From positions 7,070 through 71,069 of the IMG/VR virus record IMGVR_UViG_3300022699_000278: DNA of 64,000 nt; one strand, written 5' to 3'. Shown in pieces: positions 1 through 10,271 of the stretch; the first letter of the stretch is position 1; each line of letters starts with the position of its first letter. The notes beneath the pieces were generated by a model. That model did no database searches. It had not been told where the DNA came from and saw nothing but the letters and a program-made list of their open reading frames with translations. The position numbers and the translations under genes are program-made. Source of the stretch: a virus.

Positions 1-58
1 GGGCCGTTTCCGTTTGTACTTGCCGTGTTAGGCTATGTACTACGGCCTCTCCTCATTC

Positions 59-193
59 TTAGCGCGCTCGTTCTTCGGTTTTAATCATGCTTAATTGCCC
101 ACATGCTGCACCAGCTTTGATTTCTGCCTGTGTAGCAATGGCAACTGCATAGTCGTAACCTGCATTGTCAAGCGCCTGTTTAATAGTTTCCAT
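59..193 (-). CDS. 44-aa peptide carrying the RlmN/Cfr C-terminal AACGQL motif (not in the ORF track)
   Basis: Manual translation METIKQALDNAGYDYAVAIATQAEIKAGAACGQLSMIKTEERAR*; SD AAGGAG overlaps the upstream stop; different frame from the radical SAM gene. Confidence 0.8.
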   Translation of the reverse strand: METIKQALDNAGYDYAVAIATQAEIKAGAACGQLSMIKTEERAR

Positions 194-203
194 TACCGAC
201 TCC

Positions 204-989
204 TTAGATTAAATTTATTCCCTGTATTGCACCTTCACCCAACCCGTGCAATTCAGAGCATTCGTTTTTATTGATTGGGCTCAATTTGATAAAGAAACAT
301 TCTGGATCAAAGTATTCTTTTAGCTTCTCTATATCAAAATCGGATTCGTCAACTAAAGTCATATTGACGGTTGTTTTAAGCTTACTATCCGTTTTGATTA
401 GACCAAGTTCTTTGTAGGTTAATTTATTCTTGAATGGAATAAGCCAATTTCTTTTTTCTTCATTCAAACTATGGACACTTACCTGTAGAGTGATGTTGTC
501 TTTGACCCAAGAAAAATCAGAACCTTTAATTCCGATAGTGGACAGATAGTGGTGTGTGTCTGGAAACATAGTATCAAATAACCATATTGCCTGTTTCACT
601 TCTTCGACATTTAGGAACGGTTCACCCATTCGGGTATAATTAATTTTGTGTTCCTTTGCGTTTTGAAAACTATAGCATGGATTTTTGGATAACACAAACT
701 CAATCTGTTCCAGTATTTCAAACCTTGATAAATTGCGACACCTTTTCAATTTTCCTGTTGCACAAAATTTGCACCCGACAGGACAACCACTCATACACGA
801 TACACCAATCATCCAACGCTCTGACCTATCACCTGTAGAGGTGTAATCAAGAGCATTCTGCTTTCTTCCGATTGCGTCTTTTGTATAGTACGGAAGAAAG
901 GTATCTGTTACCTCGACCGGATAGCCATCTTCAGTTTCGAGAAGATAGACCGTTCCGTTTGTAAATGACTTGCTGTTTATTTCTTTCAT
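204..989 (-). CDS. RlmN/Cfr-like radical SAM protein lacking the C-terminal ACGQL segment
   Basis: VSCMSGCPVGCKFCATG (CxxxCxxC), RNLSxxEIxxQ, MGEP, STIG, VSVHS motifs; start placed at MKEINSK. Confidence 0.85.
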   Translation of the reverse strand: MKEINSKSFTNGTVYLLETEDGYPVEVTDTFLPYYTKDAIGRKQNALDYTSTGDRSERWMIGVSCMSGCPVGCKFCATGKLKRCRNLSRFEILEQIEFVLSKNPCYSFQNAKEHKINYTRMGEPFLNVEEVKQAIWLFDTMFPDTHHYLSTIGIKGSDFSWVKDNITLQVSVHSLNEEKRNWLIPFKNKLTYKELGLIKTDSKLKTTVNMTLVDESDFDIEKLKEYFDPECFFIKLSPINKNECSELHGLGEGAIQGINLI

Positions 990-1014
990 GGTTTTTGCCT
1001 TTCGAGCGCGCCTC

Positions 1015-1188
1015 TTATGTCTTGGGCCTGTTGTAAGATGTGCCTGCACTCAGTTTGGAAAACCAAGTAATCCCATCTTCTGATACGTATTCGCCTCCAC
1101 AATTATCAGTAAGAAGCCATTTTTTACCGTCAAATGATAATAAAGAAGCCATATATTCTGATCTACTCAATTCACCATAATTTGGCAT
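1015..1188 (-). CDS. 57-aa hypothetical protein (cassette A2)
   Basis: Manual translation MPNYGELSRSEY...SYNRPKT*; purine-rich leader; reads through an R''-like site at 1030-1041. Confidence 0.5.
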   Translation of the reverse strand: MPNYGELSRSEYMASLLSFDGKKWLLTDNCGGEYVSEDGITWFSKLSAGTSYNRPKT

Positions 1189-1247
1189 TTTAATTTTCCT
1201 TTTCCTTTTGTCTTCCGGCGGCGTTCCTCTGTATTCGGGGCAGGTTT

Positions 1248-1407
1248 ATTGCGCCCAACTCCCTCAGGCACCCGCCCGAAGTGGCTTTGTGAAACCCTCG
1301 CATTCATGCATTGTCCACTTGCCCTTATAAGGGATCTCGACACCACGACACCCTTCATTTTGGCACGTTTCACAAAGACATTTTGGGCTGCCTGTGTTGG
1401 TGGGCGT
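1248..1407 (-). repeat. attC-like hairpin A1 with a coding loop
   Basis: CACCAAC-A-CAGGCAGCCC ... GGGCGGGTGCCTG-AGGGA-GTTGGGCGCAAT; arms nearly identical to those at 15184-15355. Confidence 0.75.
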
Positions 1408-1548
1408 GTTTTCGCCATCCGCATTTTTCTGCCGGGCGGCGACCTTGCGAGTAACAACCTCTGTCAACATCGCGTGAGCCATCGTTACGAGTGCATCGTC
1501 TGGCGCTCCACTTACCGCGCTTATCAAGTTTTCTGCCACCTTATCCAC
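1264..1548 (-). CDS. Hypothetical protein (cassette A1), Cys-rich C-terminus encoded in the attC loop
   Basis: ORF with GAAGGTGG leader; shares NTGSPK and LRAGA* with ORF 15200-15517. Confidence 0.6.
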   Translation of the reverse strand: MDKVAENLISAVSGAPDDALVTMAHAMLTEVVTRKVAARQKNADGENTPTNTGSPKCLCETCQNEGCRGVEIPYKGKWTMHECEGFTKPLRAGA

Positions 1549-1594
1549 GATCTACCACCTTCCCCGCCCGGCCTACAATTCTCCAGGCGAAAAT

Positions 1595-1623
1595 ATGTAC
1601 ACCAACTATACGTTATATGTAAT
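1595..1623 (-). other. attI/dif-like recombination site A
   Basis: ATTACATATAAC-GTATA-GTTGGTGTACAT: inverted arms with a 5-nt spacer, heading cassette array A. Confidence 0.65.
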
Positions 1624-1646
1624 GTACATGAGATACACCATTATTA

Positions 1647-1871
1647 TCAATGTCTTATGTTTGGGTATAGTTTTTTTGTATCTATGCCTTTTCTCTGACT
1701 TGCGCGTAACGCCACAATCTGTATTCCATGGTTTATGGTAGCCTGATTATTTTTGTTACCGCCAACAGAAGCAGATACATCCTCATAATATCTTTTCATA
1801 AACCTTGTCAGATTTCCATTAAAACCTTCAAGGGTATGACCACATTTAATTACTCTTTTCTTTTTTTCCAT
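1647..1871 (-). CDS. Hypothetical protein
   Basis: 74-aa ORF downstream of a TTGCGC-N17-TATATT promoter-like sequence. Confidence 0.5.
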   Translation of the reverse strand: MEKKKRVIKCGHTLEGFNGNLTRFMKRYYEDVSASVGGNKNNQATINHGIQIVALRASQRKGIDTKKLYPNIRH

Positions 1872-1906
1872 AGTACAAATATATACTTGTACATAAGTAG
1901 GCGCAA

Positions 1907-2500
1907 CTATTTTTTTGCAAGGATTATATAAATGCCATTGTAGTCACGTTTTCCAGTAAGCTGCAGGTCTGACTCGTACCCGTGCTCTTTCAACATATAC
2001 TTTAATTTGCTGGTATTCCAATGTGGTAGCGGATTGGCTCCAATTTCATCATGACCATATTTGAAAGGATCGCCACTTCTGGTGTGTATAACAACCTTGT
2101 TGCAGCGTTCAAAGACCGTATTTAGTTTTTTTATTTCGTCATCATTTAAGTGGTGCAATACATAGCTTGCTAAAAACAGATCAAACTCAATTTTATCCAG
2201 ATCAACAAACTCGAACATTTCATTTATCAGGGTAACATCTTTTCCTTCAAGGGTTACCTTCGATTGCTTGTAGTACTTTCTGTTCACCTCAATTCCGGTA
2301 TACCCGGCAATTATTCTGTATAAACATAGCGCATACATCCCTGCATTAGAACCAAGCTCAAGAACTTTAGCGCCCTTAAAGAAATCAATATTGTTTTCTA
2401 TCATCGGCAGTCTTTTCTTCAGTTTGTTGTATTTCTGGTATACCTTATCGCCCTTCTTCCAGTTCTTTGATATTTGCCGGTATTCTTTTTCGGTGATCAT
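1907..2500 (-). CDS. Class I SAM-dependent methyltransferase
   Basis: VLELGSNAG motif I, GIE motif II, FDLFLASYVLHHL; paralog of 7358-8518; ATGA coupling to the upstream ORF. Confidence 0.85.
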   Translation of the reverse strand: MITEKEYRQISKNWKKGDKVYQKYNKLKKRLPMIENNIDFFKGAKVLELGSNAGMYALCLYRIIAGYTGIEVNRKYYKQSKVTLEGKDVTLINEMFEFVDLDKIEFDLFLASYVLHHLNDDEIKKLNTVFERCNKVVIHTRSGDPFKYGHDEIGANPLPHWNTSKLKYMLKEHGYESDLQLTGKRDYNGIYIILAKK

Positions 2501-2691
2501 TTTACAGTTCCTATAATACAAACCATATCGTCCGGAAAGTTACAATCAGCACTTTCAAAGCTTATTTTCTCCATACCAAAACATTTGTCATCAGCAGCTA
2601 TTAAGTACTTCCATCCTCCACGTTCTTCATAATGCATCGGCTCTTTTGGCCCATCTACGTATCCATACCTATACTGATACTCATCTTTCAT
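2497..2691 (-). CDS. Hypothetical protein
   Basis: 64-aa ORF with ATGA overlap to the methyltransferase. Confidence 0.5.
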   Translation of the reverse strand: MKDEYQYRYGYVDGPKEPMHYEERGGWKYLIAADDKCFGMEKISFESADCNFPDDMVCIIGTVK

Positions 2692-2788
2692 GGGTGAAAC
2701 CCTACCGATCTATCGTTTGGCCTTGTAGACGTACACCTGCTTAGTATTTCATCTTTTGTGTATTTTATATATATATTTGATTGACTCA

Positions 2789-3052
2789 TTACCCTATTAA
2801 ATACGACTTAGAAAATCTTTTTTTTAAAAGCTTTTCCCTTTTCTTACCCTCAGTAGTTTCCCACCAGTCCTTATCGTATTCTTTATTATACTCCAAAAGT
2901 TTATATGACATTTTCTTCGCCATACGCTCAGCTTCTACAAGCTTTTTACGCACCCTTCTGTCATGTTTTTTGTCACCTTGGTGAAGATCATTTATTTCTC
3001 TGAGGACTTCGCAAAGAGTTCTTACCTTAGTTGCTCTTCGTAACGACATCAC
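2789..3052 (-). CDS. Hypothetical basic protein
   Basis: Overlaps the GT4 stop, operon-like. Confidence 0.6.
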   Translation of the reverse strand: MMSLRRATKVRTLCEVLREINDLHQGDKKHDRRVRKKLVEAERMAKKMSYKLLEYNKEYDKDWWETTEGKKREKLLKKRFSKSYLIG

Positions 3053-4011
3053 AGCGCCACAGCACTTTCTTTTTTAACGTCAATCAACACACTTTCAAAT
3101 GCTTTCTTATACTGCCTGGCAATAGTATCTATATGGATGTGTGCTGGCACAATCATCGTCTTCCTATATGACAAAAGCCCATCAAGTGCTTTTTCAACCA
3201 ATTCAGTATCTATTGGGGGTGGGCTGTTTTTCTGCAACGTTGGCTTTATTGGCTTACTGTCCAGTGGAAGTATTGCACCATACTCTTTTACTATTTCGGC
3301 GTTGCCGCCGATATTGCCTGATATAACAGGTGTCCCGGCAGCAAGAGCTTCAACAACAGCATTGTCACACCATGAAAACCAGCAGATGCTTACCATCACA
3401 TCTGCCATAACCAAGTATCGGCGCAGCAGCTTTTCCGAAACATCTCCTACATATTTAATCTGTTCTTTTGATTTTCTTTCTTCTCTTATTTTGCCACAAA
3501 ACCAGAAACACACATCGGAGTGTTTTTTTATATAATTCTCAGCAATACGAATCATTTCTCTCATCCGCTTATGGGGCCTGACTTTGCTGGATACATATCT
3601 TCCTGAGACTATAACATTCTTTGGGTACTCCGAATCCATTGGCTCAACTTTATAATCTTCAGGATTAGCTCCGTTATATATAATAAACTCCTTTTTGCCC
3701 CTAACTCCAAGTATCTTGGTTACCATGTCGTATGCGAATTTTGTCTGGTAGATAACACCGTCACTAGTTTTTATCGTGTGCTTTATCATTTTCCTGCGCC
3801 AATCGTATTTCTTATCCTTTTCCAGATGAATCCCGTCTATTCGAATCACTTTTCTGCCTTTAGGCTTTTTCTTCCAGTACGACAGCCCAAGTGTCAAATC
3901 TGGCTTGCTGGTGACTATTTCAACACCATTTCTCTCAAGTGCAGGAATAAGCCGTTGTATAAACTTGCTTTTCCCGGTTGAATTCTTCTCGTATTGTATA
4001 GCTATTTTCAT
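3049..4011 (-). CDS. Glycosyltransferase family 4 (GT-B)
   Basis: IIYNG, HKR, NAVVEALAAGTPVISGNIGGNAE (EX7E-type region). Confidence 0.9.
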   Translation of the reverse strand: MKIAIQYEKNSTGKSKFIQRLIPALERNGVEIVTSKPDLTLGLSYWKKKPKGRKVIRIDGIHLEKDKKYDWRRKMIKHTIKTSDGVIYQTKFAYDMVTKILGVRGKKEFIIYNGANPEDYKVEPMDSEYPKNVIVSGRYVSSKVRPHKRMREMIRIAENYIKKHSDVCFWFCGKIREERKSKEQIKYVGDVSEKLLRRYLVMADVMVSICWFSWCDNAVVEALAAGTPVISGNIGGNAEIVKEYGAILPLDSKPIKPTLQKNSPPPIDTELVEKALDGLLSYRKTMIVPAHIHIDTIARQYKKAFESVLIDVKKESAVAL

Positions 4012-4129
4012 ATGTCTATGCTCGTGATAGATACTAAGTCACTAACCTCAAGGTCTTCAAAGGAAGGTGTGAGCATCTCCAAAAACTTACCTTTCCCAAA
4101 TTCATTTAACTTATATTGAATGTGAAGTT

Positions 4130-4846
4130 TCAAAGAATACGTTCCTTGTAATAATTATAAAGTTTATTCCATTTATCATGAACAGTTTTGTTTTTTCTAC
4201 TACAATGCCAAATAATAGAATCATCAGAAAATTGATTATCATTATATTTTTTACCAAGTTCCTGAAAATCTATTTGGTCCTTAAATTTATTGTAACATTT
4301 CCACAAATATTTCTGGTCGTCATACCATTCCAAATGTCGTTCAAGTTTTTCATTCAATCGTTTCAACAAAGCTCGTGTTATATTACTATTCCCTAAAACA
4401 AATACCCCTTTCTGTAATTTTCTTTTGTCCGACTGATCAGGTTTATACATAATCTTCATTGTATTCGCTTTAACATTTTCCCACAACTCGTCAAGATTTC
4501 CTCTTACTATAATATCGACATCCATATGAGCAACTTTTGAATATCCTTCATTTAATGCATCTACCATTGGTGCCGTTCTTTTTGACATTATTGAATTACC
4601 ATAAACATGATTTTTGTATGTAGAAATATTTTTTTCAGATAATATTGAATCTCCATAAACATGGATTCTGCGAACTGTTATATTTTTGTAAACATTTTTT
4701 ATTTTTATACATGATTCTTCAGATAAATCATATGCATATACCAACACTTTTTCATCAAGAGCATTCTCGGAGATTGATTTTAACATAACGCACAATTGTT
4801 CAACATAATTACCATAATTGTTTATTTCCACAGTAATTATATTCAT
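4130..4846 (-). CDS. GT-A fold glycosyltransferase (GT8/GT77-like)
   Basis: MDVDIIVRG DxD motif, DDQKYL, C-terminal KYND...IIWH. Confidence 0.75.
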   Translation of the reverse strand: MNIITVEINNYGNYVEQLCVMLKSISENALDEKVLVYAYDLSEESCIKIKNVYKNITVRRIHVYGDSILSEKNISTYKNHVYGNSIMSKRTAPMVDALNEGYSKVAHMDVDIIVRGNLDELWENVKANTMKIMYKPDQSDKRKLQKGVFVLGNSNITRALLKRLNEKLERHLEWYDDQKYLWKCYNKFKDQIDFQELGKKYNDNQFSDDSIIWHCSRKNKTVHDKWNKLYNYYKERIL

Positions 4847-4874
4847 AGTAATATTTCTACCTTATTTTTTAGGT

Positions 4875-5633
4875 TCATATCGGAAACATCGTGTTTTCTC
4901 TGGTAATGCCCTTTTTTTCCATCTGTCGCAACCGCTTCTTCTGCAATTGTTTCGTTTCTTTATACCATTTATTATCAGCTTTTCTCTTCTTATGTTTCTC
5001 CTCCGAATGCTTCCGATAGAAAGCAACCGGAATATCAATCTTTTTCTTTTTGACGTGATTAAACGGCGAATCTGGATGTATCCCGAGGCGCATGCTCATT
5101 TCCTTGTCTTCTCCTGATCGCAGCCCTTCGTACCAGCCGCCGAATCGCTCAAACACTCTTCTCCTGTACATAACTGTCTGCGGATTTACCTCTGAGGGAT
5201 GTACTCTCAGTTTACGCATCTTCTGGCATGCCTCATAGTACATCAAATCACCACGTACTTCGAGCGCCTTACCCCATACAACATCTATTTTCGGGTGTTT
5301 ATCGAGGTATATTTTCTGCAACCTCAAAGAACCTGGCACACGCATGTCATCGGCATCGAGAAATGTAATGTAGTCTCCTTTAGATATTTTAAGCCCTATA
5401 TTCCTCGCCACCGAAACACCACCGTTCACATTCAAGGGTATATAATGTATGTTTCGTTCGGGAAATTTAAAAGGCCGGAAGATGTCGTTTACCACGTCCT
5501 TTGTTTGGTCGGTACTTGCATCGTCAACTATTATTACCTCTAAGCTGTCTTTGTCGAGTTCCCACACTACCGAATGAAACGCGCTCATAATGTATCTGGC
5601 ATAGTTATATGTCGGTATTATTACGCTAATCAT
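4875..5633 (-). CDS. Glycosyltransferase family 2
   Basis: ISVIIPTYN, IIVDDASTD, NGGVSVARNIGL, FLDADD, GED. Confidence 0.95.
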   Translation of the reverse strand: MISVIIPTYNYARYIMSAFHSVVWELDKDSLEVIIVDDASTDQTKDVVNDIFRPFKFPERNIHYIPLNVNGGVSVARNIGLKISKGDYITFLDADDMRVPGSLRLQKIYLDKHPKIDVVWGKALEVRGDLMYYEACQKMRKLRVHPSEVNPQTVMYRRRVFERFGGWYEGLRSGEDKEMSMRLGIHPDSPFNHVKKKKIDIPVAFYRKHSEEKHKKRKADNKWYKETKQLQKKRLRQMEKKGITRENTMFPI

Positions 5634-6184
5634 AGCATTCCCATAACTTTCTTCTCAAATTTACCGCCCTTGTGCGATCCCGGCTTGTTGTCCTCTGCAA
5701 TCTGAACCGGCACAAACTCCATTCCAACAGCATACATGGCAGCACACCTTCTGCCGCCATGGTATATTTCATATCCTGTAAGCCAGTCGGCAAGGTATTC
5801 AAACCGCGTCTTCCACAATGGTTCTGCAAGCACCAGCACCGGCTGTGCTGCATTACGGCTTTTGCTGAAGCCACGCTTCTTTATACTCTTGAGTATTTTA
5901 TACCTGGACCCAAAGATATGCTCCTTAATAGCGCTTTCAGTCCACTTCTTCATACCAAGCTTATACCTCCACCTGCGGTCCTCTGCAAATCGGCAATGCT
6001 TTAATACCGTCCAGTTCCGCCCGTGTTTAAGAAGCATCTGCGCACACTCCACCTGCGGACTCTTCGGAAGGCTCATGTCGTATCCCCATATATCGTGGTT
6101 TATCAGCTTAGGGATAAACTGATATTTCAGTTCACGCAGTGGAAGGCTTACCGGTTTTCCTTCGAGGAGGGCGTATTCACTCAT
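5630..6184 (-). CDS. ParB/Srx-like domain protein
   Basis: KSIKKRGF...PVLV...YEIYHGGRRCAAMYAVGMEFVPV resembles the ParB N-terminal G-x-x-R motif. Confidence 0.6.
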   Translation of the reverse strand: MSEYALLEGKPVSLPLRELKYQFIPKLINHDIWGYDMSLPKSPQVECAQMLLKHGRNWTVLKHCRFAEDRRWRYKLGMKKWTESAIKEHIFGSRYKILKSIKKRGFSKSRNAAQPVLVLAEPLWKTRFEYLADWLTGYEIYHGGRRCAAMYAVGMEFVPVQIAEDNKPGSHKGGKFEKKVMGML

Positions 6185-7122
6185 ATCAGCGCCCTGAAGA
6201 AGGTTAAATACTGTTTGGCAATATTCTGAATGTATAATTCCTTAGCCAAGCCCTTATCGTAGTTCCATGTCAATGATTCTTTCATGGCCTTTATAAGGAC
6301 TTCCTGATTTATCTTTGGTGGCTTGTTGAGATTTACCGGTCTGTATTTAAACGGTTTATCTTTCAATACCTTCCCGAATACCAGCAACTCATGCGTACCA
6401 CCCTGATCTGTGCATATTACCGGGAGCCCGGCCACTTGTGCCTCAACAACACTGTTCGGACATGCGTCCACATAGGTAAGATGTATCATCGCGTGGCACG
6501 ATCTATAATAAACCGCCAGTTTGTCATCTTTTACATTGTCCTCAAATATTATGTTCCCGTTGTTACCGTACTTCTTATTATACCCCAGAGTGTCGCCGCA
6601 AACATAAAGCGTACTCTTTGGAATTCCAGCTTCAAGAAACGCTCGTATAATTTGATTCAGACGTTTTTGTTTCAACCATACTCTCGTGCTTGCTAAAAAT
6701 ATTACCCGCTCCGGATCGGTTTTTATAAGTGGCTCTACACCATAATTCCGTGGGTCGGCACCGTTGAGTATCACTGTCTCCGGTTTGTTCGGTTTGCATA
6801 CAAGCTTGTGATAAATCTTTTGGGCGTAGAAGGACTGATAAACAACGGCGTCAGCCTTTTTAACTGAAAGCGCCTTTTCGTTGTTTATCTTACGCCAGTT
6901 CATATTGGTGTCAATATTTGCTGGCCCAACGCGGATAACCTGTACCTTGGCTTTTGAACCATAGTTCATCCTACCGATATTAAGAGCAATGTCCGCTTTG
7001 GCCTTCGAATCAGGAGTAACGTTTATACCCATTTCATGCCATGCTTTAACAAGGCGTTGGCAAAATTTACCTTTCCCGGTTTTCCCACGGGCGTAGTATT
7101 TTGGATTTACATGTATCTTCAC
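6181..7122 (-). CDS. Glycosyltransferase family 4 (GT-B)
   Basis: VILNG, QKR, DACPNSVVEAQVAGLPVICTDQGGTHE; paralog of 3049-4011. Confidence 0.9.
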   Translation of the reverse strand: MKIHVNPKYYARGKTGKGKFCQRLVKAWHEMGINVTPDSKAKADIALNIGRMNYGSKAKVQVIRVGPANIDTNMNWRKINNEKALSVKKADAVVYQSFYAQKIYHKLVCKPNKPETVILNGADPRNYGVEPLIKTDPERVIFLASTRVWLKQKRLNQIIRAFLEAGIPKSTLYVCGDTLGYNKKYGNNGNIIFEDNVKDDKLAVYYRSCHAMIHLTYVDACPNSVVEAQVAGLPVICTDQGGTHELLVFGKVLKDKPFKYRPVNLNKPPKINQEVLIKAMKESLTWNYDKGLAKELYIQNIAKQYLTFFRALI

Positions 7123-7128
7123 ATTTCC

Positions 7129-7728
7129 TCAATCAATATCACAGAGATACCACCGCTTTTCCTTTGAGTGCCACATCATATCTCCTATTTTGTAACTGCC
7201 GAACGTTTTTACACCGTGTTTTGCCTGTGTTCTTTTCGCCCATTTAACAAACTTCTTGTACCCTTCCGGCGAGTGATCGAGGTGTGAGTCTGCACCCCAA
7301 TCATACGGTATTCCATACATGTAGTCCTGCCACGCCTTTTCCATGGCAGGAATGTGCTCAGTCTTTATCGCATAAGCCTTCGCCTTGTGCAATGTTCTTT
7401 TGAACAGAAGGTTTATGTTCACCTGTACTATTTTCATTGGCTTTGGTGCTACGCCGAGTTCGTGGAGCTTTTGCCACTTTTTGAATATCTTTTTCACGTA
7501 CCGGAGCTTTTGTGCTTTTTTCCATGACAGGCTGTAATACACCTTCATCCCCACTATCCTGCTTTTTTGTACGTAGATTCCGACCCGTCCCTTTGGCAAC
7601 ATCTTTCCTTTGAGTAGTACCGCGTGGCTTCCCTTCAGAAACCCGTCCTTGCCATTGACGTGTACTCCGTCCTCGGGAGCTTTCATCTTTTTCCTCTCGA
7701 TGAACTTCAGCACTCCCTTTATCTCCAT
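7129..7728 (-). CDS. Putative kinase-like protein (RIO/Bud32/Kdo-kinase type fold)
   Basis: VGMKVY (Lys), LHELGVAPKP, terminal WYLCDID; SD GGAGG before ATG. Confidence 0.5.
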   Translation of the reverse strand: MEIKGVLKFIERKKMKAPEDGVHVNGKDGFLKGSHAVLLKGKMLPKGRVGIYVQKSRIVGMKVYYSLSWKKAQKLRYVKKIFKKWQKLHELGVAPKPMKIVQVNINLLFKRTLHKAKAYAIKTEHIPAMEKAWQDYMYGIPYDWGADSHLDHSPEGYKKFVKWAKRTQAKHGVKTFGSYKIGDMMWHSKEKRWYLCDID

Positions 7729-8518
7729 CCAGAGCCTCCTTGGTTTCTGCGTCTATGCTTTCCTGCATTGCCTTTTCCTCAATGCTCCTCATCTCTTCTT
7801 TGGTTGTCCCATTTTCTGCAGCAGTTTTTTTTACCGCCTTGGCACCCTCGGCCAATTCCTCCGTGATTTCTTTTGTGTATGTCGTCTTTTCAGGCTCAAC
7901 AAACCCCGGCTTCGTTCCGATCACAATATGGAATTTTTTGTCAGGCCCGAACTCCCACTTTGTCTCGAAGCCGTTTTTCTGCAGGTAGTTTATCACGCTG
8001 TTGTAATGCCAGAATGCATGGTTGTTGTGCTTTCGGCGACCTTTTTTGTTTCTTTTGGCATATCGACTCATTACAATGATCACATCAACTTTCGGCAGCA
8101 CGTTCTTCTGAAACATGTCCACCTCTTTGTCACTGAAGTGATAGAGAACATACGAAAGGAAAACCGCATCAACCGGTCGCGAAATAGTCCCTCGTGCAGT
8201 TCTCCGCATAAACGTTTTAACGCTCATGTTCATGAACTCAACGTCCTTGTTTTTAATTTGCTTTTTGATTTCCAGGGCCTGGTTATAATACCCATTCTCG
8301 CCCTCAACACCGGTATACGATTTTGCAATCTGAGCAATATGATACCCGGCGAGCCCGGCATTTGAGCCAACTTCAAGCACATTTTTCCCGGTAAACAGGG
8401 TGATATGCTTCAGCAGCGTAGGAAATCGAACAGTATACCTGTCGTATTTTTGGTATACCGTTCCGTGCTTTTTCCAGTCCTTTGAAAGTTCGTTGTATTG
8501 CTTTTTAGTCAGCAACAT
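7358..8518 (-). CDS. SAM-dependent methyltransferase with a long charged C-terminal tail
   Basis: VLEVGSNAG, GVE, LSYVLYHF; SD GAGGAG; tail overlaps the kinase-like gene by 371 nt. Confidence 0.8.
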   Translation of the reverse strand: MLLTKKQYNELSKDWKKHGTVYQKYDRYTVRFPTLLKHITLFTGKNVLEVGSNAGLAGYHIAQIAKSYTGVEGENGYYNQALEIKKQIKNKDVEFMNMSVKTFMRRTARGTISRPVDAVFLSYVLYHFSDKEVDMFQKNVLPKVDVIIVMSRYAKRNKKGRRKHNNHAFWHYNSVINYLQKNGFETKWEFGPDKKFHIVIGTKPGFVEPEKTTYTKEITEELAEGAKAVKKTAAENGTTKEEMRSIEEKAMQESIDAETKEALDGDKGSAEVHREEKDESSRGRSTRQWQGRVSEGKPRGTTQRKDVAKGTGRNLRTKKQDSGDEGVLQPVMEKSTKAPVREKDIQKVAKAPRTRRSTKANENSTGEHKPSVQKNIAQGEGLCDKD

Positions 8519-8529
8519 TGTATTCTCCT

Positions 8530-9477
8530 CTATTTTAATATGTTTACCAACCACATCATAGCCTGTTCTCGATTGCCTATTTTGCTTTTTATAACTTTAA
8601 TGTGTTCCTCGTTATCTAAATATACTGCATTTTTTATGGTTTTAATCGCCGATTTAACATTCAATGCCTTGTATTTCAAAGCAGTTTTCCCTGGTATACA
8701 GTGGTCGCTGCAGCCAGCCAGTGGTGCATCCGGGTATATTACCTTACACCCGCACAGTGCAGCCTCTATCGGTGGGTTATGTAGCCCTTCCTTTGTGCTT
8801 GTGGATACCCATGTCCCTATAGTATTATACATTTTTATCAGCTGCGAGTGTGAAGGGTTTTTTATAAACAGAACGAACCTGTCGTCAACAAAACGCCATA
8901 TTTTTTTATTCAAGTCATACCCATACCCAAAGTAGTTGTATTTATCACCAAGATTTTTAATCAGCTTCATTGCAAAATCAAAGTTTTTGCGTGGCTTGGT
9001 TGAAACCAGAAAACCAAGGCTCTTCGGGTTCCTTGCACCATTGTTGCTCCACTTGTCTATATCAACACCCTGATGTGCGATAGCCGTTTTTATACCGTGA
9101 GCAAGAAACCAGTCGTACAGGTTTTCACTGTTTACTATGACGTGAACCCTTCTGGCCTTTCTCAGAATATTAGCTTTTGACATTTGATGACTTTCAAGAA
9201 GCCTACACCAATAGTAGGCCCTTGCATTTTTTGGCTTTGTTTTTAACATGGGGCCAATGTCGCTTATTGAACATGCTATGCAAACATCTGTATCCGGGGG
9301 AATTCTTTTTAATGGTGGCTTATGCTTAATCCAAGTGTGCCTATCAGAATGAGTAACAATATGCGTTCTGTGTCCAAGCTTATTCAGAGTCTGTGTACAT
9401 AATATTATAGTTCGGCTGCCGCCACACTGGTTTAATCCACCATAATATGGATGCTGTGCACAGAAAGCTATTTTCAT
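8530..9477 (-). CDS. Glycosyltransferase family 4 (GT-B)
   Basis: GGSR N-terminal motif, RKN, EGLHNPPIEAALCG. Confidence 0.85.
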   Translation of the reverse strand: MKIAFCAQHPYYGGLNQCGGSRTIILCTQTLNKLGHRTHIVTHSDRHTWIKHKPPLKRIPPDTDVCIACSISDIGPMLKTKPKNARAYYWCRLLESHQMSKANILRKARRVHVIVNSENLYDWFLAHGIKTAIAHQGVDIDKWSNNGARNPKSLGFLVSTKPRKNFDFAMKLIKNLGDKYNYFGYGYDLNKKIWRFVDDRFVLFIKNPSHSQLIKMYNTIGTWVSTSTKEGLHNPPIEAALCGCKVIYPDAPLAGCSDHCIPGKTALKYKALNVKSAIKTIKNAVYLDNEEHIKVIKSKIGNREQAMMWLVNILK

Positions 9478-10271
9478 TCAATGATCCTTCTAATTGCCTT
9501 GACAACCTTCTCAACCGGAGGATTCCATTTATGTTTATCAAGCACCTTGCATGGTGTATTAAATGGATTCCAAAGTCGTTTATACCTGTTGCGGTTAGTT
9601 CCTTTAATAATTTTCAAATACTCGTTTCCGGTAATTACTACATGGGGACATCCGCAAAGAGATGCGAGGTGCATGGGGCCGGAAGAAGTTCCAACACAAA
9701 CTTTGGCAATAATTAGGGTATTACACAATTCCTGCAATGACCTGTCCCGCAGATCAACAGTTCCTTTAACGTGATATGCCCCACTTTTAGTTCCAATAGA
9801 AGCACAATGTTTTGGATCAACACCGAGTAGCTTCATCACTTTTTCGTATCGTGCTGGTGGGAAATTCAATTTTGACTGTCTATACTTTTTCATATGTCGG
9901 GCATGAAAAACAACCTTATAGCCATACCTGTTTGTTGGCGAAGGTGCCGTCCCGTACATAACATATTCCCTCGGCCACATCATACAAACGTTACGGCGTG
10001 GTTCAATAACTTTGGCGTCCGGATACTTCCGCTTTATTTTGTCGGGCATGTGCGTCACCTTGCCATTCAGCAGCCACCGATCGGAGTCACCTTTTTTATC
10101 ATAGTGGTGTATTTTGTCAGCAAAGTCTTCGTATAAGTAGTCATTACCTGTTCTACAAACAATAACCGTTTTGCCATAGTTTCTGGAACGCTTACGTATT
10201 GCCGGTATCCATGTAGTAAGATTCCAACCAAATTCAAGCGCAGTGTCTGGTCCTGCAAGCAATTTTTTCAT
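9474..10271 (-). CDS. Glycosyltransferase family 9 (heptosyltransferase-like)
   Basis: VDLR..SLQEL, VCVGTSSGPMHLASLCGCPHVVI. Confidence 0.8.
   Translation of the reverse strand: MKKLLAGPDTALEFGWNLTTWIPAIRKRSRNYGKTVIVCRTGNDYLYEDFADKIHHYDKKGDSDRWLLNGKVTHMPDKIKRKYPDAKVIEPRRNVCMMWPREYVMYGTAPSPTNRYGYKVVFHARHMKKYRQSKLNFPPARYEKVMKLLGVDPKHCASIGTKSGAYHVKGTVDLRDRSLQELCNTLIIAKVCVGTSSGPMHLASLCGCPHVVITGNEYLKIIKGTNRNRYKRLWNPFNTPCKVLDKHKWNPPVEKVVKAIRRIIE

Follow-up and report, generated by a model that had tools for sequence, protein, structure and literature searches.

Can the methyl-carrying cysteine of an RlmN-type radical S-adenosylmethionine (SAM) enzyme reside on a separate small protein? This question is raised by two neighboring genes at the left end of a 64,000-nucleotide (nt) stretch of viral DNA (hereafter the window), which comprises bases 7070-71069 of the 71,069-bp IMG/VR record IMGVR_UViG_3300022699_000278, rated 93% complete, and belongs to a tailed phage encoding a terminase, a portal, a head protein, a tail fibre, a primase-helicase, and Erf/RecE-type recombination genes. 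RlmN is the Escherichia coli methyl synthase acting on C2 of A2503 in 23S ribosomal RNA (rRNA) and of A37 in transfer RNA (tRNA), and Cfr is the methyl synthase for C8 of A2503 in 23S rRNA. To our knowledge these two are the only characterized class A radical SAM methylases, and their mechanism relies on two cysteines located in one chain. In the phage, by comparison, a core of 261 amino acids (aa) and a 44-aa peptide with the putative carrier cysteine are encoded separately. The interpretation that we favor, at a probability of roughly 0.55, is that the two genes encode one two-subunit RlmN-like methyl synthase, in which the peptide would serve as an exchangeable methyl carrier and a base other than cysteine would release the product.

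The gene pair

Both genes are located on the minus strand. The core gene (204..989, stop 206-204) encodes an RlmN/Cfr-like radical SAM protein that has neither an HhH2-type N-terminal domain nor a segment corresponding to that of Cys355 in RlmN. Its open reading frame (ORF) starts with an ATG at 989, yielding 261 aa, and could be extended to a GTG at 1049; the ATG was preferred because 113 of the 120 best core homologues have a length of 260-267 aa, the other 7 being longer solely through N-terminal extensions. The [4Fe-4S]/SAM cluster motif C69-x3-C73-x2-C76 (CPVGCKFC) is encoded at 762..785, as assigned from the sequence and a HMMER alignment, and the codons for G62-V-S-C65 are found at 795..806, with G62 occupying the position of RlmN Cys118 in the family alignments and in the HMMER alignment to 6fz6. 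Residues 120-124 of the core read RMGEP, and the protein ends with ...GAIQGINLI, without an ACGQL motif.

At the junction with the peptide gene (194..206, minus strand), the sequence contains the TAA stop of the core (206-204), an AAGGAG (205-200) that overlaps this stop, a 10-nt spacer, and the ATG of the peptide, so that the minus strand reads ATC TAA GGAGTCGGTA ATG and the peptide is in a different frame from the core. The peptide gene itself (59..193, stop 59-61) encodes the sequence METIKQALDNAGYDYAVAIATQAEIKAGAACGQLSMIKTEERAR, for which a helix, a strand, and a loop with A30-C31-G32-Q33-L34-S35 are predicted. Cys31, the presumed methyl-accepting cysteine according to the peptide alignment and hhalign, has its codon at 101..103. 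These findings confirm the initial annotation, made from the letters of the sequence, with respect to both ORFs, the 10-nt gap, the change of frame, and the AAGGAG and ATG of the 44-aa ORF. A scan for promoters and terminators gave nothing exceeding the shuffled expectation, and a megablast search of window positions 1-3000 against phages gave no match. Between the peptide genes of the window and of locus L002, 13 synonymous and 14 non-synonymous codon differences were counted, with third positions varying most.

Relationship of the core to RlmN and Cfr

In profile searches the core matched the RlmN model TIGR00048 with 66.7 bits (E 1.8e-18), below the cut-off of 290 bits, over profile positions 102-242 of 355. 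The Cfr models TIGR04432 and NF000424 scored 44-48 bits against cut-offs of 468-550, and Pfam Radical_SAM reached 24.1, below its cut-off of 29.5. An AlphaFold model of the core, built from a 60-sequence family alignment with 72 invariant enzyme columns, had a mean predicted local distance difference test score (pLDDT) of 89.9 and a predicted template modeling score (pTM) of 0.88. It was compared with the RlmN structures PDB 3RF9, 3RFA, 4PL1, 4PL2, 5HR6, and 5HR7, also with 6FZ6, and with Cfr (PDB 9P0P). The best agreement was obtained with E. coli RlmN and 6FZ6 (Z 20.6-22.3, root-mean-square deviation (rmsd) 2.4-2.7 Å over 223-228 residues), followed by Cfr (Z 15.5, 3.2 Å, 207 residues), while the best other radical SAM enzyme gave a Z of 12.2 at 4.0 Å over 220 residues. 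Residues 1-259 of the model span RlmN 80-346 at most, and six of the seven RlmN-type comparisons reach only 80-324 to 80-328. Since residue 1 of the model corresponds to RlmN residue 80, residues 1-79 and the last 40-55 residues of RlmN are missing from the core. Judged from this model, the core is predicted to form an RlmN-type radical SAM partial barrel with a CX3CX2C motif.

RlmN and the phage core have in common the CX3CX2C motif, the GEP motif, and the (S/T)(T/S)xG motif. In contrast to RlmN, the phage family carries its Cys loop on a separate 44-aa product, has replaced Cys118 by Gly, and lacks RlmN residues 1-79; the core furthermore contains an insert of ~25 residues after the first sheet, which includes invariant residues but is modeled with a pLDDT of 36-45. 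Cfr belongs to the same enzyme class as the phage pair and follows the same two-SAM methyl-cysteine logic, but its cysteines C105 and C338, which correspond to C118 and C355 of RlmN, are in one chain, its fold matches the core less well than that of RlmN, and its specific residues near the base (M95, Y97, W101, S103, D150, S151, and S153) are not reproduced in the phage family.

The peptide as counterpart of the RlmN C-terminus

In the translation of E. coli RlmN from NC_000913, C118 is found in ATLCVSSQVGC and C355 in DIDAACGQLAGDV, in agreement with the residue number that the initial annotation had given for the methyl-carrying cysteine. An alignment of 15 peptides contains 11 invariant columns, among them A30-C31-G32-Q33-L34-S35, and hhalign placed the peptide on RlmN 327-364 with AACGQL over AACGQL (E 3.4e-4, probability 38%), a placement colinear with the core's end. 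The earlier proposal that the 44-aa ORF carries the carrier-Cys segment was borne out by this alignment, and the sequence comparison supports the peptide as the counterpart of the RlmN segment with the methyl-carrier Cys355. No family in Pfam, NCBIfam, or PHROGs was matched by the peptide.

Natural occurrence of the split

Searches with the core yielded 2484 homologues at E<=1e-3, the best 120 of which are 65-93% identical to it and 260-298 aa long. Our analysis of genomic loci covered 58 cases, namely the window, 15 IMG/VR records (two of which duplicate another), 3 cultured phages, and 39 bacterial or archaeal assemblies, mostly contigs of gut metagenome-assembled genomes together with isolates of Segatella copri, Bacteroides congonensis, Lepagella muris, and a Muribaculaceae bacterium; removal of the duplicates left 56 non-redundant loci. 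A separate small ORF of the form ..GYDYAVAIAT.AEI.AGAACGQLS.. was present in 56 of the 58 loci (54 of 56 non-redundant), and no peptide ORF was found in L029, where the contig ends 721 nt past the enzyme, and in L064, which holds an enzyme fragment only. Among the non-redundant loci the peptide gene is adjacent to the enzyme gene in 29, with spacers of -17 to 77 nt, and lies on the same strand 285 nt to 2.7 kb downstream in a further 24. Only in L032 is it found upstream, at 3995-4126 and thus ~1 kb before the enzyme gene. The peptide of this locus ends with ...GAACGM and is missing the usual QLS tail. All three frame offsets between enzyme and peptide (0, 1, and 2) occur across the loci.

The pair is also carried by cultured phages, namely Kehishuvirus tikkala (Crassvirales, host Bacteroides cellulosilyticus), Moorella phage MTATph1, and the Pectobacterium phages Wc4 and Arno. 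The enzymes of K. tikkala and MTATph1 are 63% and 43% identical to that of the window, and in both genomes the pair is annotated as two hypothetical proteins, WEU69814 and WEU69813 in the case of K. tikkala, while in Wc4 the enzyme is 38% identical and a 92-codon gene is situated between enzyme and peptide. In a 353-kb viral contig (L018, 3001-3563) the enzyme gene is broken into two short ORFs by an internal deletion and the downstream peptide ORF is intact.

These observations bear directly on whether the pair is the artefact of a sequencing frameshift, a decaying pseudogene, or a gene whose programmed frameshift restores one protein. Such an explanation could appeal to relatives at ~27-36% identity, which are single proteins. 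However, the separate peptide ORF in 56 of 58 loci, the spacers ranging from -17 nt to 2.7 kb, the use of all frame offsets, the upstream peptide gene of L032, the separate annotation of both ORFs in K. tikkala and MTATph1, and the absence of a C-terminal fusion among 128 matches to a peptide profile (see below) all speak against it. Neither a sequencing frameshift nor a pseudogene nor a programmed frameshift is compatible with the variation in spacer, position, and frame, so that the probability of an artefact is practically nil and this explanation is already refuted by the comparative data. As judged from these sequences, the two-gene split is natural and old, in line with the initial annotation, which had argued against a sequencing frameshift. 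Splitting of an ancestral gene by an inserted homing endonuclease was considered as well and rejected, since the HNH gene of the phage lies downstream of both parts and not between them; the intervening ORFs listed for 16 loci with separated genes encode radical SAM proteins, methyltransferase-like proteins, or other products that match no family, and the HNH sequence of the window's phage matches one other locus only.

Fused relatives

A profile of the 15 peptides was searched against 1.84 billion representative proteins without a length filter and gave 128 matches at E<=1e-3, of which 82 had E<=1e-10 and 121 were <=120 aa long, indicating from sequence comparison that the peptide recurs far beyond chance. 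No C-terminal enzyme-peptide fusion was found among the 128 matches. Sixteen matches, including 6 of the 7 longer than 120 aa, were inspected, and most of them consist of the peptide preceded by unrelated sequence. P0146 represents a methyltransferase-like protein, also known from a four-gene operon described below, in frame with the peptide, and P0247 (422 aa), judged from its first 120 residues, looks like an unrelated repeat protein. The only match that contains the enzyme is P0228 (315 aa), which is permuted, with the Cys peptide at the N-terminus followed by a linker of ~20 residues and the enzyme core, and has T at the C65 position; it is alone in its cluster, which comprises 2 sequences on 2 contigs. 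An AlphaFold model of P0228, for which the alignment used enzyme rows from residue 21, reached a pLDDT of 79.1, with values of 81-89 for the peptide helix (2-10) and strand (14-17) and of 58-61 for the Cys loop. This pattern of model confidence is consistent with a strand in a docked position and a catalytic loop that is mobile.

Genuine single-chain relatives appear only at ~27-36% identity. Consistently fused homologues, which the initial annotation had named as an argument against the split, are thus not what the family contains. Two of the more distant relatives, gp133c of Salmonella phage Arash (309 aa) and WPH68542 of Stenotrophomonas phage BUCTxx99 (319 aa), share 31-36% identity with the window core and, like it, are phage-encoded and without the RlmN N-terminal domain, but they differ from the window pair in being single chains in which the Cys118 position is still Cys and the C-terminal loop reads GGGCGQL. 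The gene for WPH68542 (L065, record 96510-97469) is annotated as 'prohibitin family protein' and lies inside a phage cluster of five tRNA genes, a location that hints at tRNA as the substrate of the fused phage forms. A third relative, WAK79139 of Bacteroides phage Versailles (335 aa, 27% identity), is likewise phage-encoded and resembles the window family in having no Cys at the Cys118 position, but its Cys loop is part of the enzyme chain and has the sequence ITCGNA instead of AACGQL.

The missing resolving cysteine and the altered active site

All 121 aligned family members and all 53 readable loci have Gly at the position of RlmN Cys118 (C105 in Cfr), seven residues ahead of the cluster motif. 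The nearby position 65 is C in 104, T in 11, and V in 6 of the 121 sequences, and C in 30, T in 15, and V in 8 of the 53 loci, with T or V in all three cultured phages examined. The only enzyme cysteines conserved familywide are C73 and C76 (121 of 121) and C69 (120 of 121), so that the three cluster ligands and Cys31 of the peptide are the sole conserved cysteines overall. According to two papers, SAM methylates Cys355 in the accepted mechanism of RlmN and Cfr, a 5'-deoxyadenosyl (5'-dA) radical takes a hydrogen from this methyl group, and the resulting methylene radical adds to the adenine carbon (PMC5130265, PMC12871812). Cys118 is then needed for turnover of RlmN, and its replacement in the C118A variant traps a covalent enzyme-RNA complex (PMC5130265). 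Without Cys118, the phage family is left with two options: another base completes the reaction, or the peptide stays attached. The initial annotation had proposed a naturally two-part class A methyltransferase; the natural split stands, but the description is too simple because the family lacks the second catalytic cysteine and the N-terminal domain.

A similar picture emerged for the surroundings of the target base. Residues within 5 Å of the target adenine, as listed in a Cfr preprint (10.1101/2025.09.18.677109), were transferred through the family and RlmN alignments to the phage proteins, in which the corresponding residues are invariant or nearly so. Of these, R114 of RlmN is kept as R58, while E111 is replaced by R55, T116 by M60, C118 by G62, N172 by K115, V174 by N117, and M176, a residue of the 5'-dA pocket, by T119. 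Further family-invariant polar residues on the barrel strands are H146, H147, Y148, Q169, N209, and K235. Where RlmN has the basic stretch R344-K345-T346-R347, the peptide has the neutral A18-I19-A20-T21; the register is uncertain by ~2 residues here, but all of this region is neutral in the peptide of the window. Taken from the sequence alignments, these replacements point to a substrate or a binding mode that differs from those of RlmN and Cfr. A base other than cysteine has been considered elsewhere: in the class C methylases NosN and NocN a carboxylate was proposed as the likely completing base (PMC12871812). Their architecture is unrelated and their methyl carrier is a second SAM, not a cysteine, but by analogy this carboxylate is a suggested precedent for the non-cysteine base that the phage family would need.

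Proposed two-subunit mechanism

By homology to RlmN and Cfr, the 261-aa core would bind the [4Fe-4S] cluster and SAM, and the 44-aa peptide would dock through its helix and strand at the place of the RlmN C-terminal segment and insert its AACGQLS loop into the active site. SAM would first methylate Cys31 of the peptide, as in RlmN and Cfr. Cleavage of a second SAM would then generate the 5'-deoxyadenosyl radical that takes a hydrogen from the S-methyl group, and the S-CH2 radical would add to an sp2 carbon of the substrate. For the release step another general base would be required because the family has no equivalent of Cys118, and H146, H147, Y148, K115, and N117 are candidates for resolving the adduct. 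As a speculation, a separate peptide could be made in excess and exchanged between turnovers. Because the surroundings of the target base match neither RlmN nor Cfr, the expected target is either an adenine-type carbon in an RNA that is bound in a novel manner or a free adenine nucleotide; these two appear about equally likely, DNA less so. Overall, the chemistry or the target probably differs from that of any studied relative.

Genomic context

Immediately downstream of the peptide gene, at record bases 6615-7058 and thereby just outside the window on its left, the minus strand encodes an HNH endonuclease (phrog_1571, E 1.8e-27). HNH genes are also found within 3 kb of the pair in K. tikkala, L003, and L008, and the pair may therefore be a two-gene module traveling with homing endonucleases. 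Together with the HNH gene it lies inside a minus-strand accessory block (window 3049-10271 and record bases 3129-5983) with at least six glycosyltransferases (GT1/4, GT2, GT8). The block also holds minus-strand genes for a methyltransferase of 204 aa (1907-2521), for a second product with weaker similarity to methyltransferases (7358-8554), and for one weakly resembling sulfotransferases (9474-10271). By its gene content the block looks like a phage-encoded glycan-modification cluster. The 204-aa methyltransferase was rejected as a partner of the pair, given its E value of 0.40 against the 146-150-aa methyltransferase-like protein of the operon and its presence in no other locus. At the left end of the record (bases 1-1253), two overlapping near-identical ORFs of 271 and 255 aa share long stretches and contain short proline/serine-rich repeats; their sequences indicate a direct repeat of ~700 bp.

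No second radical SAM gene, nicotinamide phosphoribosyltransferase (NAMPT) gene, or tRNA gene was found in the 93%-complete record of the window's phage, and the enzyme and peptide genes would thus constitute a sufficient unit. Elsewhere the surroundings are richer. In 18 of the 56 loci (L003, L026-L028, L030, L031, L033-L040, L043, L056, L058, and L061) a gene for a MoaA/viperin-like radical SAM protein of 243-268 aa and a gene for a methyltransferase-like protein of 146-150 aa are located between enzyme and peptide, so that the four-gene operon has the order enzyme, MoaA/viperin-like protein (cluster motif CNM..NCYFC), methyltransferase-like protein, and peptide. Another 6 of the 56 loci have a different radical SAM gene (295-310 aa) nearby, which is accompanied by a small Cys-tailed partner in L007 and L051. 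NAMPT was detected within the flanks of 5 of 56 loci by tblastn and of 6 of 13 IMG/VR loci by Pfam. Of 16 other carrier records, 9 contain PF04095 and 7 lack it, the latter including three rated 100% complete and the complete genomes of K. tikkala and the Moorella phage. An obligatory link to NAD salvage was rejected since PF04095 is absent from the window's phage and from these 7 carriers; such a link would be facultative at most, and a looser association is possible.

Alternative explanations

Several observations weigh against the two-subunit methyl synthase. Cys118 is required in RlmN (PMC5130265) and absent here, so that completion of the reaction is an assumption, and M176, which lines the 5'-dA pocket of RlmN and is conserved in Cfr according to the sources cited above, is Thr in the phage family. 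Neither the peptide nor its profile found an RlmN chain in the PDB at E<=10, and in keeping with the hhalign probability of 38% the similarity between peptide and RlmN is weak outside the motif. Moreover, other genes lie between enzyme and peptide in 24 of the 56 loci, and the intervening radical SAM and methyltransferase-like genes in 18 of them leave room for a more complex pathway that could use the peptide differently.

The lack of Cys118 could also mean that the S-CH2 bridge is never broken. The peptide would then be a consumable, either staying covalently on its target, with a methylene bridge linking it to an adenine carbon in a host RNA or in a nucleotide, or being spent as a sacrificial donor in each turnover, and the host molecule would be tagged or inactivated. 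We know of no radical SAM-driven ligation of a peptide to a nucleic acid or nucleotide in nature, and we consider this explanation unlikely. It would account for the split, which makes the consumed part cheap, and for the strong ribosome-binding site that the 44-aa peptide has of its own, and it agrees with the invariant Gly in place of Cys118, with the T or V that replaces Cys65 in 17 of 121 sequences and 23 of 53 loci, including all three cultured phages, and with the covalent complex trapped by RlmN C118A. However, the many invariant polar residues on the barrel strands could supply a base, a carboxylate is the likely base proposed for a class C methylase (PMC12871812), and the Versailles enzyme keeps its Cys loop fused without a cysteine at the Cys118 position, where attachment would cost one enzyme per turnover. 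An ordinary RlmN or Cfr activity in split form, which would methylate host 23S rRNA at C2 or C8 of A2503 or else tRNA at A37, is likewise improbable. RlmN and Cfr supply all of the nearest structures and sequence models, the median isoelectric point of the enzyme family (8.2) equals that of the RlmN core, although charge is uninformative on RNA binding, and the compact fused phage relatives retain both cysteines, with that of BUCTxx99 encoded among tRNA genes. Against this stand the scores far under the model cut-offs, the missing N-terminal domain and Cys118, the differences from both enzymes at most of the positions that the preprint places within 5 Å of the target adenine, the neutral counterpart of the basic RlmN stretch in the peptide, and a phage genome without tRNA genes. 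Finally, the small protein could be the substrate and its modified form the product, similar to a RiPP, a ribosomally synthesized peptide with post-translational modifications. This alternative had been raised in the initial annotation as an enzyme with a peptide substrate and is less likely; we judge it very improbable, even though a small conserved peptide is encoded beside a radical SAM enzyme and 24 of the 56 loci have further radical SAM genes in the operon, some with small Cys-tailed partners. The peptide retains the helix, the strand, and the AACGQL loop of the RlmN C-terminus and is fused to the enzyme in P0228. Auxiliary-cluster cysteines are missing, only the three cluster cysteines being conserved in the 121 sequences, and the core matched no SPASM family in Pfam or NCBIfam. 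No protease or exporter is encoded next to the pair in the window, though many of the neighbors match no family.

Significance

Our literature search, which covered papers available without subscription, found none on a split or phage RlmN-like enzyme. The two-subunit methyl synthase proposed here would represent a widespread phage family that has placed one catalytic cysteine on a separate, exchangeable 44-residue protein and dropped the other. The window contributes an example of this family reduced to the two genes alone, its phage lacking NAMPT, tRNA genes, and any further radical SAM gene; our analysis contributes the tally of 56 loci, the permuted fusion, and the fused phage relatives. 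The family offers a natural system for studying how a methyl-cysteine loop is delivered, how the adduct is released without Cys118, and how a phage benefits from this chemistry, and its cultured carriers make these questions directly testable. Should the target be a host RNA or a nucleotide of the immune or NAD type, the pair would constitute a new kind of phage enzyme for host takeover or counter-defence.

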